This document shows positions 1,956-9,793 of a stretch of DNA of 12,364 nucleotides, one piece after another. This stretch comes from Nitrospinota bacterium. Lineage in GTDB: Bacteria; UBA8248. The stretch spans positions 1 to 12,364 of the forward strand of contig JAYGFR010000086.1 in the NCBI GenBank assembly GCA_046581755.1, given 5' to 3'. Position 1 is the stretch's first letter, and the number at the start of each line of letters is the position of its first letter. The position numbers and the translations under genes are program-made. The notes under the pieces were generated by a model, which searched no databases, was not told where the DNA came from, and saw nothing but the letters and a program-made list of their open reading frames with translations.

Positions 1956-2645
1956 TCAGAAAACTTCGTCCTCGGGGTTATGCATCTCGCCCATCCGCTT
2001 GAGAATGGGTGGGGGGAGATCCTCGTAGAGCCCTTTGAGCTCTTTGTTCGTCTCCTTCTGGGTCATCTGGTAGAGGCTGTTCCCGTCCGTGTCGCATTCG
2101 ACGAGGAAGGGCCCGAAATTTTTCACCCGGAGCACCCACATCGCCTGGGCGATGCCCAGCTCCTCCAGCCAGTGCACCGCCTCCACTTTTTCGATGCCCC
2201 GCCCGTACTGGGCGCCGATGCCGTATCCCACCGTGTTGAGGAACACCGCTCCGAGGCGCTTGAAGTGGTTCCGATAAAATTCGGAGGACATCCCCCCCTT
2301 TCCGATGACGCAGCGGACCCCGTACTGATCCATGAGCAAGGGCAGGTGCTTATCGAACCGAAAGCTCGCCGTCGCCGTCACGGCCGAGATCTCCCACTCG
2401 CCCGGCCCCTTCTCGCTCACCGCGGGCGAGCAGTGGAAGGTGACGTTCGTCAGGGATTCGATATCGAGCGGAGGCTCGGCTCCCTCGTCGAAGAGTTTTT
2501 TATAGACTCCGATCCTCCCGGTGAAGATCACCCCGTCGATACGGACAATATCGCCCAGCTTGAGGCGGGCAAGCGCCTCGGCCGAGAACGGCGTTTCGAG
2601 CCGGTGCTCGTCCATCGCCAGATCGGATGAGCTCATATCTGCCAT
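1956..2645 (-). CDS. Fe-S hydro-lyase beta subunit (class I fumarate hydratase C-terminal / L-tartrate dehydratase beta family)
   Basis: Motifs LETP..LKLGDIVRIDG.IFTGR, HCSP, IGKGGM, WLEELG.AQAMWVLRVKNFGP.LV..DTDGNSLY. The ATG at 2645 is preceded by GGGGGA about 10 nt upstream and is preferred over TTG 2663. Adjacent to the alpha subunit. Confidence 0.88.
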   Translation of the reverse strand: MADMSSSDLAMDEHRLETPFSAEALARLKLGDIVRIDGVIFTGRIGVYKKLFDEGAEPPLDIESLTNVTFHCSPAVSEKGPGEWEISAVTATASFRFDKHLPLLMDQYGVRCVIGKGGMSSEFYRNHFKRLGAVFLNTVGYGIGAQYGRGIEKVEAVHWLEELGIAQAMWVLRVKNFGPFLVECDTDGNSLYQMTQKETNKELKGLYEDLPPPILKRMGEMHNPEDEVF

Positions 2646-2667
2646 GCGAATGGATTCCCCCAAAAGG

Positions 2668-3618
2668 TCAACTCACCGAATCGCGGCGGTAATACTCGGT
2701 GAACCACCGCGGGTCCTCGCGGTACTCGACTTCGCCGTCGGGGTGAATCCGCGCGGTGCATCTCCTGAGGGCGAAGCATTGATGGTGGATGGAGACGGGC
2801 ATCCCGCCCGTGTGGGTGTAGGCGACCTCGATGTGCGCGTCCATGACGGCGCCCTGTCCCTTGAAGCCCATCGCGCTCAGGCTGGTCCGCCGGCCCAGCT
2901 CGATTAACTCCTCCTCGAGGGCGGCGATCTGCGGGTCCGGATTCCGGTTCCCCACCACGCGCAGGCAGGCCGCCTCCTTGGCGAGTTTTACGCAGGTGTC
3001 CTTGGTCCCCCCGATGCCGATGCCGACGATGGCCGGCTGGCAGGAAAGCCCGCGCTTGAAAAATTCGCTGATCACGTCGAGATAAAAGCGGCGGATGCCG
3101 TCGATCCCGTCTCCGGGGAAGAGCATCCGGTAGTCGCCCCCGAAGAGGCCTCCCTTGTGAAACGCCGTTATCTCGACCCAATCGGCCCCCGGCTCCCAGG
3201 AGTAGTCCACGGTCGGTGCGTGGATGCCGACGTTGTTGTTGTGGTCTTTCCGCGTGAGCGGGTGGACGCGATTCGGGCGGAGGGGAATCTCGGCCGTCGC
3301 GCGGGCCGTCGCCTCGCGGATGCTGCGCTCGAAGGCGACGAAACCGCCCTCGATGCGCGCCTCGTTTCCGATCTTTGCGTAGAAACGCGGAAGCCCGGTA
3401 TCGGCGCACATGGGACGCTGGTCCTCGTCGGCCACCTCGTAGTTGTTGACGATTTCGAGCAGGACGAATTTCGAGAGCTTTTCGGTCTCGCGCTCGGCCA
3501 TGCCGCGGATGCTGGTCCGGACATCGTTCGGAATGTGAATGGCGGCCCGGCGGTTGAGCTCGAAGGCCACCTCGCGAATCAGGTCGGCGCCGATGGATGT
3601 TCCGGTTGTGACCGGCAT
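2668..3618 (-). CDS. Fe-S hydro-lyase alpha subunit (class I fumarate hydratase N-terminal / L-tartrate dehydratase alpha family)
   Basis: Three cluster Cys in PMCADTG, SCQP..VGIGIGG and QCFALRR; also PLRPNRVHPL, LEEEL and MGFKG. Strong RBS GGAGGAG upstream of ATG 3618. Confidence 0.92.
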   Translation of the reverse strand: MPVTTGTSIGADLIREVAFELNRRAAIHIPNDVRTSIRGMAERETEKLSKFVLLEIVNNYEVADEDQRPMCADTGLPRFYAKIGNEARIEGGFVAFERSIREATARATAEIPLRPNRVHPLTRKDHNNNVGIHAPTVDYSWEPGADWVEITAFHKGGLFGGDYRMLFPGDGIDGIRRFYLDVISEFFKRGLSCQPAIVGIGIGGTKDTCVKLAKEAACLRVVGNRNPDPQIAALEEELIELGRRTSLSAMGFKGQGAVMDAHIEVAYTHTGGMPVSIHHQCFALRRCTARIHPDGEVEYREDPRWFTEYYRRDSVS

Positions 3619-4818: not shown

Positions 4819-6567
4819 TCAATCCACAAACGATTCGGGCGCCGTCGGGGCGGACGCCTGGTCCATGCCCGGCTCGACCCGCGTGAAGCGGACGGGCCGG
4901 CGCTCGACGGCAGCCTCCCCCTCCCGCTTCGATATGAAAACATTGTACAGCCCATCGCCGTTTGTTTCCGGAATATCGTCCCGGTAGTGGCTGCCCCGGC
5001 TTTCGTCCCGCTCGATGGCGCTTCGTGCGATCAGCTTCGCGGTGGCGATTTGATTGCGCACGTCGAGCACATTTTGCCACGCCAGGTTGTAGGCACGGCC
5101 GCTCCCGCCCCGGGCCGCCGCCGCCTGCTCCCCGAGCGCTTCGAGCCCGGCCAGGCCCGCTTCGAGATCGGCTCCGCTGCGCCGGAGGCCGATTTTCTCC
5201 CACATCAAATCCTTGAGCTCCGCCCGGATGGGATAGGGGGAGTCCCCCTCGCCGAGCGCGGCAATTGCGCCCTCCGCCGCCTCATCGGCGGCGGCGCGGG
5301 CGAATTTTTTCAGCGGAACGGCCCGGGCCTCCGCCGCCATGGCCTCACCGGCCACCTCTCCGAAAACGGTGGAGTTCGCCACCCCGTTTCCGCCGAGGCG
5401 GTTAGCGCCGTGGGTTCCGCCCGCATCCTCGCCCGCCGCGAAAAGGCCGGGAAGGTTCGTGCGGCAGACGGTGTCGATCTTCACCCCGCCCATCATGTAG
5501 TGCGCCGTCGGGGTGACCTCCACCGGGCCGCCGGCGAGATCGAAGCCCAGGTCCGCACAGCGATCCACCATCCCCTTGAAATTTTTCCGGACGAAATCCG
5601 CTCCCAGGTGGCTCACGTCGATGAAGACGCCGCCGCTCGCCGTGCCCCGGCCCTCCCGGATTTCGGTGTACCCCGCCCGGGACACGAGGTCGCGCGTGGA
5701 GCGCTCCATCCGCTCCGGGTCGTAGCGCTCCATGTAGCGCTCGCCCCGCTCGTTCAGAAGGTAGCCGCCCGCCCCGCGCACCCCCTCCTCGAGCAACGTC
5801 CCGGTGATCTGCAGGCCATCGCCCGTGAGAATGCCGGTCGGGTGGAACTGGACCATCTCCATGTCGCAGAAATCCGCCCCCCCCTCCCATGCCATCGCCA
5901 TCCCGTCGGTGGCGAGCTCCTGGGCGCAGGCCGAATATTTATAAAATGTGGGGCCGCCGCCGGTGGCGAGGAGGGTACATTTCGCGGCCACGGCGGTGAA
6001 CGCACCGCTCCGGATATCGAGGAGCATCGCCCCGGCGATTCGGCCCTCATCCCCGCTGGCGGGAAGGAGGGAGAGGGCTCGGTACTCTTCGAGGACGGGA
6101 ATGGCGCGGCGGGCGATCTGCTCGGCGACGCGGTTCGTCAGCTCGATGCCGGTCAGATCGCCCTTGTGGACGGTGCGGTCGAAGCTTTGGCCGGCAAATG
6201 CCTTCTGGTGGATGGCCCCGTCCGCGCTCCGGTCGAAGAACGCGCCGCAAACGGTCTCCAGCCTGCGGACGCAGTCGGGCGCCCGGCTGACGAGGAGCCA
6301 GGCAAGATCTTGATCGTTGAGCCAGGCTCCGGCCCGGATCGTGTCCATAAAATGGTTTTCAACCGAATCGCCCTCCGAGAGGGCGACGTTGTAGCCGCCC
6401 TGGACCATGCGCGTGCATCCGCTTTTTCCAAAAAGGCCCTTGACGGCGATGAGGATATCCAGAGAGGGGGCCGCCTCGTAGGCCGAAAGAGCCGCCAACA
6501 GGCCCGCGCCGCCGGATCCCAGGATGAGCACATCGCACTTTCGAACCTGATACGCGGGGCCGCCCAC
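4819..6567 (-). CDS. sdhA: Succinate dehydrogenase/fumarate reductase-family flavoprotein subunit (TfrA-like SGCT signature, atypical active site)
   Basis: Rossmann GSGGAG, QFHPTG, EG.RG.GG.L.N..GERYM, RD.VSR, HYMMGG, GLFAAGE, HGANRLGGN and ESRGSHYR. GTG start with AGGAG RBS. The symbol is family-level only and the substrate is probably not succinate. Confidence 0.92.
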   Translation of the reverse strand: MGGPAYQVRKCDVLILGSGGAGLLAALSAYEAAPSLDILIAVKGLFGKSGCTRMVQGGYNVALSEGDSVENHFMDTIRAGAWLNDQDLAWLLVSRAPDCVRRLETVCGAFFDRSADGAIHQKAFAGQSFDRTVHKGDLTGIELTNRVAEQIARRAIPVLEEYRALSLLPASGDEGRIAGAMLLDIRSGAFTAVAAKCTLLATGGGPTFYKYSACAQELATDGMAMAWEGGADFCDMEMVQFHPTGILTGDGLQITGTLLEEGVRGAGGYLLNERGERYMERYDPERMERSTRDLVSRAGYTEIREGRGTASGGVFIDVSHLGADFVRKNFKGMVDRCADLGFDLAGGPVEVTPTAHYMMGGVKIDTVCRTNLPGLFAAGEDAGGTHGANRLGGNGVANSTVFGEVAGEAMAAEARAVPLKKFARAAADEAAEGAIAALGEGDSPYPIRAELKDLMWEKIGLRRSGADLEAGLAGLEALGEQAAAARGGSGRAYNLAWQNVLDVRNQIATAKLIARSAIERDESRGSHYRDDIPETNGDGLYNVFISKREGEAAVERRPVRFTRVEPGMDQASAPTAPESFVD

Positions 6568-6579
6568 GAGGCTCTCCTC

Positions 6580-7110
6580 TTAAGAAGATTTCGCCGCGAG
6601 CCTGCCGGCGATCGCATCGAGCGCATCGAGCGCCAGCCGATCGATCTCGGCTCGTTCCATGTGCGCGACCGGATGGACAGTGGAGACGATTGGATAGGGT
6701 TCGCTGAACAGGGCCTTGGCCTGAAATTCCCCGGCCTGGAGAAATTCACCCGTCACGACCGGCGCCGCCGGCACCCCCCACCGCTCGAAAAAAGCCGCAT
6801 CGTGCAGACTGCACGTTGTGCAGCTTCCTCAGTAGGCGAGGCCTTCCACGACGCCATCGCACCGCCGGGCGATTTCCTCGGCCATTTCGGCCGGAGCCGG
6901 TTTCGCGTGGGTCGGTTTTTTGTAATAGACCGTCTCGGCCACACCGTAATTTTTCTGGAGCAGGCGGCCCACGGCCTCGAGAAACAGGTCTCCCTTGGGC
7001 TTGCCGATATCGAGCAACCCGATCACCTTGCCCTCCAGGCTCCCAGGGCGCAGCGCCAGTTTTTCGAGGCGGCGTTTGGGTTTTGCGGTCGGATCAAAAA
7101 GCTCGGGCAT
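6580..7110 (-). CDS. UGSC-family selenoprotein (176 aa, Sec at codon 94, TGA 6829-6831)
   Basis: ORFs 6829..7110 and 6580..6774 are in the same frame. Reading through the TGA gives ...VVEGLAY-U-GSCTTCSLHDAAFFERWGVPAAPVVTGEF...HPV..., the UGSC family signature. RBS AAGGGAG upstream of ATG 7110. A SECIS-like hairpin lies directly downstream of the TGA. Confidence 0.9.
6792..6826 (-). promoter_or_regulatory. Bacterial SECIS element
   Basis: mRNA after UGA reads GG-AAGCUGCA-CAA-CGUGCA-GUC-UGCACG-A-UGCGGCUU: an 8-bp lower stem (one G:U), an internal loop and a 6-bp upper stem, with a G opening the apical loop at +20. The core UGCAGUCUGCAC resembles the E. coli fdhF SECIS core UGCAGGUCUGCAC. Confidence 0.8.
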
Positions 7111-8158
7111 TCCTGTCTCCCTTCGTTCGCGTCTTCGCGGTGGCGCTCACCCCGCCGTTTTTATTCCGCTTATCCCCTAGATTGCTGACCGGCCGGGTAA
7201 CCATGTTCGTCCCCATGTAGTCGGCGATGCCGGGCATGAGCATGCTGTATATTCCCCCGGTCCCGCCCGCCACGACTATCGTCAGCGCCTCGGGCGCCTG
7301 GAATTTGCGCCGGGGGTGTCCTCCTTTTTCGCCGGGCATGAGCGCCGCCTGATAAATGACGTTGCGCGTGGCGTTCTTGCTCCACCCGGCGCGGCCGAAG
7401 ATGCTGGCGTGAAGTGGGCCCAGCGCGAGGATTACCCCGCTCGTCCCGATCAGGTGCCTGTCCGCCGACCAGATGGTGCACATCGAGCGCCCCAGGATAT
7501 CCGCCATCTCCTCGGCGCCGGTCACTCCTTCGATTCGAATTTCGCGGGGCGCCTCGCAGGGAAAGAGAGTCACCGCCCCCATCTCCGCTTTCAACCCCCG
7601 ATCGGCGTGAAGCGGCTCCCAGGGGCTTTCTTCTTCGTTCTCGCCGATGCAGTAGGTGTACCGGGCGGGAGAGCCGAACATGGTCCGGGAAATTCCCCCC
7701 GGCCGGGAGCCGCCGATGTTGGCCAGCACCAGCATCAGGGCGCGGCCGACGACCGCATTGCCCCGGGTTCCGTTTCCGAATACGCCGCTCCCGCAGTTGA
7801 TTCCGCCCGCCTCCCGCGCGAGTCCGTTTACGATGACGAGGGGGGACGCGGAATCGGTCATTCCCCCCACCGCGTGGAGGTTGAACTTTTCATCCACCAT
7901 GGCCCGCACGCACGCCGCGACCAGCGGCATGTGCTCGGGCGCGCAGCCCGCCATGACGGCGTTGATGGCGACCTTCTCCGCCGTGGCGTCGCCGTAGTTG
8001 GGCGCTACCTCTCCCATAATCTCATCCGGCGCGAGCCCAGCCGCCCGGAGGAGAGCGTTCACCTTCTCCCGCGTCGGCGGGACGACGGGAAGGCCGTCGG
8101 TCCATCCTTTTTCGTAATAAGCCTCGACGAGATCGTTCTCGTCCCGCTCGAAGGGCAT
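7094..8158 (-). CDS. Conserved uncharacterised protein of the 'GWTDGLPVVPPT' family, a UGSC-selenoprotein partner (354 aa)
   Basis: Motifs GWTDGLPVVPPT, ATAEKVAINAVMAGC.P, PLVIVNG, NAVVGRAL.L.L.NIGG, G.P.RYT.CIGENEEESPWEPLH..RG and IVVAGG. From recall, this family commonly neighbours or fuses with UGSC proteins. ATG 8158 has RBS GGGAG. The stop overlaps the UGSC start by 17 nt. Confidence 0.82.
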   Translation of the reverse strand: MPFERDENDLVEAYYEKGWTDGLPVVPPTREKVNALLRAAGLAPDEIMGEVAPNYGDATAEKVAINAVMAGCAPEHMPLVAACVRAMVDEKFNLHAVGGMTDSASPLVIVNGLAREAGGINCGSGVFGNGTRGNAVVGRALMLVLANIGGSRPGGISRTMFGSPARYTYCIGENEEESPWEPLHADRGLKAEMGAVTLFPCEAPREIRIEGVTGAEEMADILGRSMCTIWSADRHLIGTSGVILALGPLHASIFGRAGWSKNATRNVIYQAALMPGEKGGHPRRKFQAPEALTIVVAGGTGGIYSMLMPGIADYMGTNMVTRPVSNLGDKRNKNGGVSATAKTRTKGDRNARAF

Positions 8159-8211
8159 AACTGCTCCCGATTTTAAAGAAATTGGAAAAAATCGCCCCTG
8201 TCCCTGACCCG

Positions 8212-8242
8212 AGTATGCCCGCCTACGGCCTCGGCATGTCAA
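8212..8242 (-). promoter_or_regulatory. Putative sigma70 promoter for the leftward operon
   Basis: Perfect -35 TTGACA (8242-8237) and -10-like CATACT (8217-8212). The spacer is 19 nt, longer than optimal. Lies about 55 nt upstream of ATG 8158. Confidence 0.4.
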
Positions 8243-8274
8243 CCGCCCGGATAGTACCGACGGGCCCGGGCGAA

Positions 8275-8303
8275 TCGATTCCGCGCCCCGATGGGGGTAG
8301 AAT
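8275..8303 (+). promoter_or_regulatory. Putative sigma70 promoter for the transporter gene
   Basis: -10 TAGAAT (8298-8303), 17-nt spacer and weak -35 TCGATT (8275-8280). Confidence 0.3.
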
Positions 8304-8389
8304 TCGCGGATCGAAGGTTCGACCGGACCCTTCCGCTCCTCACCGGAGTTCCAGCGCCGGATCCGTCCTGAACCCGTGGAGGGGCGAGG

Positions 8390-9793
8390 ATGAGCGCACT
8401 GCCAGAGTCCATTCGCCCCGGCCCCGCTGGCTGGGTGTATGCTGCCCTTTTCGCGGCCCTTTTCCTGTTCCTCTTCCTTCCCCCGCCGCCCGGCCTCTCG
8501 GTCCAGGGCTACCGGACGCTTCTCGTTTGCGCCACCGCCGTCGTCCTGTGGACGAGGGAGATCCTGCCGCCCGGGCTGACCGGCGGGCTCGTCATCCTGC
8601 TCCTGATCCTGACGGGCGCCTCGTCGTCGGTGAACGAGGCCCTTGTCGGATTCTCCCAGCCCGTGATTTATTTTCTCATCGGCGTCTTCACGATCGCCAT
8701 CGCCGTCGAGCGGGTCGGCCTCGCCGAAAGGATCGGGCGGTATTTCCTGCGCTACTCAGGAGGAAAGAGCCGCTCGCTCTTCTGGTTCATGGTGCTCTCG
8801 TTTCCTCCGATGGCGCTGATCATGCCCTCCTCGAACAGCCGCTCCATCATCCTGGCCGAGGTGTTCGACCGCACATTTTCCCTCGCGGGCGTCGAAAAAG
8901 GGGCGCCCCTCGCCCGCGCCATCATGATGGCCCTCCATTCGCTGAACCGCCTCGCCTCCTCCGCCCTGCTCACTGGCGGGATGACCTCCATCGTGGCGGC
9001 GAATCTAATCGGCGGATTGGGCTGGACCCGGTGGTTTCTCCTTCTGGGGGTCCCCTACTACCTGACGCTGTGCATCGGCTCCCTCGGCCTGCATCTGAAG
9101 TACCTTCGCGGCGGGGACCGGCGGCTCACCCTTCCTCCTCAGGAGAAAAAGCCGCTGAACGGCGGGGAGATCCGCACCAGCCTGATCATTCTCATGGCCT
9201 CGCTCCTTTGGCTGTCTGACGCGGTGCACGGCCTCCACCCCGCCGTCCCGGCCATGATGGCCTGGACGCTCCTTCTGCTGCCCGGCATCGGCGTTCTGAA
9301 ATGGGGAGATTTCGAATCCCGGTTCTCCTGGGCGACGTTTTTTCTCCTCGGCGCCTCGCTCTCCCTGGGCTGGACGCTGGCCCATACCGGGGCGGCGAAA
9401 TGGCTGGCGCTGAGCCTCCTCCATCTGGCCCCGGCCCTCGCCGGGCACCCCTATTTTCTCTTCGCCGCGATCCTGATCGTCAGCGTTCCGATCCGCATCC
9501 TCGTTCCCAACATCACCGGCTACCTCGCCATCACCATCCCGATCAGCATCGAAATCGGACAGGGAGGCGGCCTGAACCCGCTGGCCTGCGCCCTGGGCGT
9601 TCTGCTCATGGGCGATTCGATTCTCTTCTACCCGGCGCAGAGCCCGGGCAGCCTCGCCGTCTACGAGCGCGGCCACCTCACGGCGGGCGAGATCTTCCGC
9701 TTCGGCCTGTTCATGACCGGGGTGTCGTTCGTGACCACCCTGACGACCACCCTCCTCTGGTGGCGCATCGCGGGGTTGGACTGGCTCCAGTAG
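8390..9793 (+). CDS. DASS/SLC13-family anion transporter (Na+:dicarboxylate/sulfate symporter or CitT/TtdT-like antiporter)
   Basis: 467 aa, highly hydrophobic. Motifs GFSQPVIYFLIG.F.I..A....GLAERI, MPSSNSR hairpin, SSALLTGG, LW.....HG, LPGIGVL.W......W.TFFLLGA.LSLG..L..TGAAKWLA and YPAQS......Y..G. RBS GGAGG/GAGG. Confidence 0.9.
   Translation: MSALPESIRPGPAGWVYAALFAALFLFLFLPPPPGLSVQGYRTLLVCATAVVLWTREILPPGLTGGLVILLLILTGASSSVNEALVGFSQPVIYFLIGVFTIAIAVERVGLAERIGRYFLRYSGGKSRSLFWFMVLSFPPMALIMPSSNSRSIILAEVFDRTFSLAGVEKGAPLARAIMMALHSLNRLASSALLTGGMTSIVAANLIGGLGWTRWFLLLGVPYYLTLCIGSLGLHLKYLRGGDRRLTLPPQEKKPLNGGEIRTSLIILMASLLWLSDAVHGLHPAVPAMMAWTLLLLPGIGVLKWGDFESRFSWATFFLLGASLSLGWTLAHTGAAKWLALSLLHLAPALAGHPYFLFAAILIVSVPIRILVPNITGYLAITIPISIEIGQGGGLNPLACALGVLLMGDSILFYPAQSPGSLAVYERGHLTAGEIFRFGLFMTGVSFVTTLTTTLLWWRIAGLDWLQ

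Follow-up and report, generated by a model that had tools for sequence, protein, structure and literature searches.

What is known of the systems closest to the gene analysed here comes from three groups of proteins. The UGSC family (PF24696, NF041046) is already catalogued as a selenoprotein family, and as far as the accessible text of PMC1976440 and PMC2398784 goes, our gene shares with it a full-length match, the UGSC motif, a TGA with a SECIS element, Cys homologues and the association with a protein designated 'Unknown_1', differing by Tyr for Asp before Sec and by Ile for Asn at residue 35. The second group comprises GrdB of glycine/sarcosine/betaine reductase (PF07355) and PrdB. For glycine and proline reductase, the accessible part of PMC10298544 describes a selenoether mechanism of reductive C-N cleavage, and that of PMC10838667 reports a variety of leaving groups for GrdB-type sets, C-F cleavage having been proposed as well. 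The several UGSC paralogues per genome resemble the substrate-specific protein B sets of the latter account. However, UGSC is devoid of the N-terminal part of about 340 residues that is modelled by PF07355, its partner shows no relationship to GrdE/PrdA, and no grdA, grdC or grdE lies beside the UGSC gene, the true grd genes of the genome being located on other contigs. Third, UGSC shares with Trx/Prx-like UxxC selenoproteins the UxxC at a helix N-terminus and probably thiol recycling, but the best matches of its model are Rossmann/flavodoxin-like, and its similarity to Trx/AhpC profiles is at most 11.4%. A Trx-like fold was the guess in the accessible text of PMC2398784; the confident model obtained here instead finds its best matches among Rossmann/flavodoxin-like structures. 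In the accessible text of six accounts of UGSC (PMC2398784, PMC13188914, PMC1976440, PMC9312934, PMC9402790, PMC7539508) we found neither a link between UGSC and GrdB nor a function for UGSC, and subscription papers or supplements may hold such a link.

The window, i.e. the whole stretch of 12,364 nucleotides analysed here, holds a further member of this catalogued family, a hidden gene that is ordinary for a Sec-rich genome. A preliminary description had noticed two same-frame ORFs parted by one TGA, with a GSCTTC motif in the read-through, though without naming the strand, and minus-strand translation of 7110..6580 bears this out, yielding 176 residues and a TAA with a single TGA in the context LAY-U-GSCTTCSLHD (Table 1). 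ORF calling with table 11 cuts the gene into a 93-aa ORF (6829-7110) and a 64-aa ORF (6580-6774), the latter beginning at a GTG at residue 113, so that GSCTTC is lost. The downstream half had been said to have no convincing start, and indeed there is no start codon for the whole second half, the in-frame starts past the TGA being those at residues 113, 119 and 151. Membership of the UGSC family, likewise proposed, is confirmed over both halves: the joined protein matches PF24696 over positions 2-170 of 172 with 153.7 bits (cut-off 25) and NF041046 with 132.8 bits, whereas the separate halves score 53 and 61.8 bits with NF041046, leaving only the joined form above its cut-off of 125. The expectation that standard annotation would miss the gene was also correct. 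The database relatives P0003 and P0004 stop exactly at the TGA, showing that gene callers truncate UGSC Sec genes, and when the read-through protein served as query in a word-index protein search, the only matches were two N-terminal fragments, because databases cut at the TGA. A PDB sequence search with UGSC gave no significant match (best E 0.069). At the DNA level, the TGA is unchanged in three of four public runs, the fourth (X21) having no reads on the stretch. RNA-library contigs, which are no proof of transcription, span parts of the locus, and one of them, X18 (6534-6988), crosses the TGA unchanged.

Table 1. Features of the locus, in window positions.
Feature	Position	Strand	Basis
UGSC-family selenoprotein gene, 176 aa	7110..6580 (ATG 7110, TAA 6582-6580)	minus	translation, PF24696 and NF041046 matches, model pLDDT 96.5
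In-frame TGA, codon 94, predicted Sec94, in Y-U-G-S-C-T-T-C	6831-6829	minus	translation, orthologues, metagenome loci, DNA runs
Upper stem-loop of a bacterial SECIS, with a 3-nt loop (first base G) on a 6-bp stem	6801..6815; lower stem 6788-6830	minus	folding, alignment, consensus criteria
Shine-Dalgarno-like AAGGGAG, 6 nt 5' of UGSC ATG	7117..7123	minus	sequence; similar purine runs in orthologues
Partner gene ('Unknown_1'), 354 aa, overlapping the UGSC start by 17 nt	8158..7094	minus	ORF, Pfam/NCBIfam scans, relatives, complex model
SdhA/FrdA/TfrA-like flavoprotein, starting 12 nt past the UGSC stop	4819..6567	minus	ORF, Pfam/NCBIfam scans
Two-subunit class I fumarate hydratase-like pair	1956-3618	minus	NCBIfam, below equivalog cut-offs

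Is the TGA decoded as Sec? The genome, which is 96.5% complete, holds selA, selB and selD above their cut-offs together with tRNA-SeC. It encodes eight copies of UGSC, all eight with one TGA, and the family occurs in 43 of the 51 genomes of the phylum, where one TGA is present in all 150 matches listed out of 239. Five orthologues of this gene share 65-81% identity with it. In the four extracted (L064 was left out), Y-TGA is kept throughout, and an ungapped comparison shows dN to be much lower than dS in either part of the gene, with dN of 0.14-0.23 against dS of 0.63-1.02 in the part after the TGA. The aligned column is occupied by Cys in 145 of 150 full-length database relatives, some of these possibly being Sec written as C. 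Among 120 metagenome loci, which were chosen by a protein-level motif and form a test set separate from the training set, the codon in this column is TGA in 112 and TGC or TGT in eight; as the motif demanded Asp before the Sec codon, this set says nothing on the frequency of Tyr. Homology over both halves, Cys at the aligned column and the sel genes argue strongly for Sec insertion, in line with the single Sec protein put forward in the preliminary description, and the two ORFs very likely constitute one 176-aa UGSC selenoprotein. Elsewhere in this Sec-rich genome, a TGA is present in each of two GrdB genes, one PrdB-like gene, GrdA and SelD (C60, C256, C208, C268), and ten of the 19 AhpC-TSA matches have one TGA.

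Three elements are additions to that earlier account: a SECIS hairpin, the upstream partner gene and the homology to GrdB. The hairpin starts 13 nt past the UGA, its loop 19 nt past it, and it has a folding energy of -22.4 kcal/mol (47 nt) and a z-score of -4.2. It agrees with all four bacterial SECIS criteria in the accessible text of PMC13188914 (section 5), which specify a loop of 3-9 nt on a stem of 4-16 bp, G in the first two loop positions, a distance of 16-37 nt from the UGA and an MFE of at most -7.5 kcal/mol. One stem pair shows a compensatory change from C-G to G-C in four of 14 sequences. A hairpin at this fixed position is found at 101 of the 112 TGA-type metagenome loci versus none of the eight Cys-type loci, and at 0.34% of the 110,861 TGA triplets of the genome. 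The sole variant within it, at position 6802, comes from a single contig of run X7; it leaves the encoded residue unchanged, and the G-C pair concerned becomes G-U. An Rfam scan of 6500-8500 gave no match to a SECIS family, even with E values up to 10 allowed. We consider it virtually certain that UGA94 is read as Sec by SelB and tRNA-Sec under the guidance of this hairpin.

The residues around the Sec are in part particular to this gene. Tyr before Sec had been remarked upon as unusual and Asp as usual, and this holds: Asp precedes the Sec column in 140 and Tyr in none of the 150 full-length relatives, Tyr93 being retained in all four orthologues compared; the other seven paralogues have D in five cases, G in one and V in one. 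Residue 35 is Asn in 142 of the 150 relatives, and Ile here and in the orthologues. Judged from these alignments, Tyr93 and Ile35 mark a divergent sub-clade of UGSC. The UxxCxxC motif of the preliminary description is present in this protein, but its third Cys, C100, is no constant of the family, with C in 35 and W in 62 of the 150 relatives. Similarly, H103 is present in 48 of them, and in 75 of 112 TGA-type versus one of eight Cys-type loci. The conservation of C100 and H103 in Sec-type genes follows from the location of their codons in the SECIS stem. Cys97 is replaced in 11 of the 150 relatives.

An AlphaFold2 model of UGSC, computed from 109 sequences, has a pLDDT of 96.5. In it, strands and helices alternate in five units, and Sec94 opens the helix that follows strand 3. 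The structures most similar to the model are Rossmann/flavodoxin-like, with Z 9.2-11.6 and an rmsd of ~3 A over 113-165 residues, none of them outstanding; no thioredoxin-fold chain is among the listed rows of two fold searches, an absence that does not exclude this fold. Profile comparison by hhalign with the Sec region of GrdB aligns UGSC residues 72-173 with a probability of 95.5% and a pairwise E of 1.5e-8 over 95 columns, Sec on Sec. The GrdB profile represents the Sec-bearing C-terminal region of ten GrdB/PrdB-type proteins, all from this phylum (10 of 31 after an 80% identity filter). With UGSC residues 92-104 masked, the match is still at 92.2%; the reversed alignment yields 0.6%, 20 shuffles at most 1.2%, and control profiles for Trx, AhpC, receiver and GrdA 0.2-11.4%, the Trx and AhpC-TSA sets of the genome accounting for 5.4-11.4%. 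UGSC and GrdB/PrdB have in common a U-G-[ST]-C-T pattern and the motifs E-x-x-G-[IV]-P and H-P. Residues 1-88 of UGSC give no match to GrdB (1.0%), the lone PrdB-like copy compared with UGSC yields 1.6%, and a Pfam scan at E 0.01 found PF24696 only and no PF07355. Thus, by profile comparison, the Sec half of UGSC is homologous to the Sec end of GrdB, and UGSC is GrdB-like in its working at best and no member of the GrdB family.

The gene upstream of UGSC encodes a protein for which no Pfam or NCBIfam family was found but which has at least 6,312 relatives. Its AINAVMAGC stretch appears, in the accessible part of the 2008 GOS paper (PMC2398784, Fig. S1A), as 'Unknown_1' fused to UGSC. In our genome, the partner adjoins or is fused to seven of the eight UGSC paralogues, the eighth having an array of partner genes within 3 kb. 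Among 23 metagenome loci flanked by 1.5 kb or more in both directions it is present at 21 and lacking at two, and UGSC-partner fusions occur in 18 of 150 representatives and at nine of 112 TGA loci. The model of the partner has a pLDDT of 85.5; it gave no clear solved fold in a search with the whole protein, the best hit being a chorismate mutase with Z 6.1 over 90 residues. We discarded a relationship to GrdE/PrdA (PF09338), as the comparison with 16 GrdE-like sequences gave 0.1%, and likewise Sec in the partner, for the TGA in the C89 copy is at a non-Cys position beside a frameshift and none of 41 metagenome copies has a TGA at the Cys of the partner. Orthologous partners measure 328-329 aa; the copy here has a 26-aa C-terminal extension beyond the 328-aa orthologues. 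At 7142-7165, variants as well as a deletion of 1 nt are seen in public runs. Elsewhere in the assembly, C167 carries a tandem array of four partner copies (11238-15604), parted from its UGSC gene by one opposite-strand gene (~750 aa), and broken copies, reflecting either decay or assembly error, are found on C89 (2473-3310, premature TGA and frameshift) and C167 (11238-12289, frameshift).

In complex modelling, the window's partner and a Cys homologue of UGSC reached a score of 0.78, the best of three controls 0.32. Of 157 solved complexes, 116 attain the score mark used, as against two of 215 mismatched pairs. The stand-in, P0131, is a non-cognate Cys homologue with 64 identical columns, folded without alignment, rather than the UGSC of the window. 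Contact agreement between runs was at least 87% and the pLDDT of the partner at least 88. In the predicted interface, the N-terminal arm of UGSC, around P7, lies on I65, N66, M69, L143 and N147 of the partner, and the Sec-equivalent Cys with the two residues after it is included together with a variable partner loop, 93-101. UGSC is thus predicted to dock on the 354-aa upstream partner with its Sec position in the interface.

What might such a pair do? We propose that UGSC and its partner form a two-subunit Sec-dependent reductase, a reading to which we give an even chance. Following the nearly assured decoding of UGA94 as Sec by SelB and tRNA-Sec under hairpin guidance, the N-terminal D-P arm of UGSC would, as the model makes likely, dock into a groove that is conserved in the partner, placing Sec94 against the variable loop 93-101. 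By analogy to GrdB, and about evenly poised between right and wrong, the selenolate would then attack a carbon of the substrate held at the interface and free an N, S or O leaving group, whereupon Cys97 would resolve the selenoether to a selenenylsulfide. A thioredoxin-type system would re-reduce the latter, as suggested by fusions: one UGSC protein carries a fused Pyr_redox_2 domain, and one partner protein a fused ferredoxin-thioredoxin reductase domain. These fusions and the AhpC/Redoxin domains present in some partner clusters point to a thiol electron supply. Each paralogous UGSC-partner pair might have its own substrate, which fits the differing gene neighbourhoods of the eight pairs, as far as these can be judged from crude ORF picks. 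As the partner is unrelated to GrdE/PrdA, there is no visible counterpart to the pyruvoyl/Schiff-base activation of glycine and proline. In a wider reading, tentative and somewhat short of an even chance, UGSC and its partner would represent an undescribed and very widespread class of two-subunit selenoenzymes, in which a Sec module of GrdB type, reduced to a minimum, docks on substrate-binding subunits that are interchangeable and belong to no described family, and performs reductive C-N, C-S or C-O cleavage without pyruvoyl or GrdA/GrdC machinery, the Tyr-Sec sub-clade feeding a C4-dicarboxylate pathway in marine bacteria. With the homology to GrdB, the regular partner and the modelled interface, UGSC would no longer be an orphan family but part of a defined enzyme of two proteins, in which individual residues can be named.

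The strongest alternative accepts UGSC as a true selenoprotein but sees in it a dedicated shuttle or activator in thiol-disulfide redox chemistry, with the role but not the fold of a thioredoxin, which would reduce a Cys or cofactor of the partner and leave the chemistry to the latter. The UxxC at the helix start in the model and the fusions with thioredoxin-reductase-like and FTR domains are in accord with this, and a redox role for the conserved partner Cys is proposed in the accessible text of PMC2398784. However, this residue, Cys72, lies outside the predicted interface and is replaced by Ala or Gly in three of the 41 metagenome copies as well as in the two copies on C14 and C74 of this genome, and GrdB, the closest detectable relative, is a substrate-attacking subunit. 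We regard a shuttle as unlikely, although it merits consideration.

Less probable still is a metal or Fe-S cluster at the interface with Sec94 and Cys97, and perhaps also Cys100 and His103, as its ligands, which would make the pair a metal-dependent hydro-lyase or a metal/sulfur carrier. In favour of this, Foldseek matches the partner best to Fe-S fumarate hydratases of class I (E 7e-4, TM 0.29), and some Cys-type relatives are fused to a small CxxC domain. Yet the fold matches are weak, with an rmsd of ~16 A and a best Z of 6.1, and C100 and H103 vary as described, the SECIS stem accounting for their conservation in Sec-type genes. The fused CxxC domain, seen in the Cys-type UGSC proteins P0161, P0218, P0256 and P0269, is ~80 aa long and without a Pfam match in the three that were scanned; it may resemble the C-terminal domains of NifU.

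That the TGA is instead a true stop or a sequencing error, in a pseudogene or between two small genes, is hardly credible: the N-terminal half is indeed stored as a separate protein in databases and broken genes do occur in the assembly, such as the partner on C89, but the same TGA recurs in all paralogues, in the orthologues, at 112 of 120 metagenome loci and in three public DNA runs, purifying selection persists past it, the SECIS accompanies TGA-type genes only, and a full second half follows without a start codon.

For the two-subunit reductase that we favour, the gene neighbourhood offers a hint at the substrate. The pair heads a same-strand run of genes for the SdhA-like flavoprotein, a membrane anchor, an SdhB-like protein, class I fumarase-like alpha and beta subunits and a Zn amidohydrolase; on its other side are a DASS transporter, an M24 hydrolase and an ABC binding protein. 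From these neighbours, the substrate of this copy may be a compound that yields a C4-dicarboxylate, an improbable guess as it stands. The whole Sdh/fumarase block is kept at all three same-genus orthologues but absent beside two more distant ones, whose contigs are short (6.8 and 9.9 kb), which makes a substituted succinate only a weak lead for this pair. The beta subunit of the fumarate hydratase-like pair has no paralogue in the assembly at E 1e-15. The SdhA-like flavoprotein has its best NCBIfam match in TfrA, at 551.6 below the cut-off of 718, and about ten paralogues in the genome. It carries a Cys in the context G-C-T-R-M-V-Q-G-G where the canonical copy on C48 has a His in S-H-T-V-A-A-E-G-G, which we take to be the site of covalent FAD attachment.
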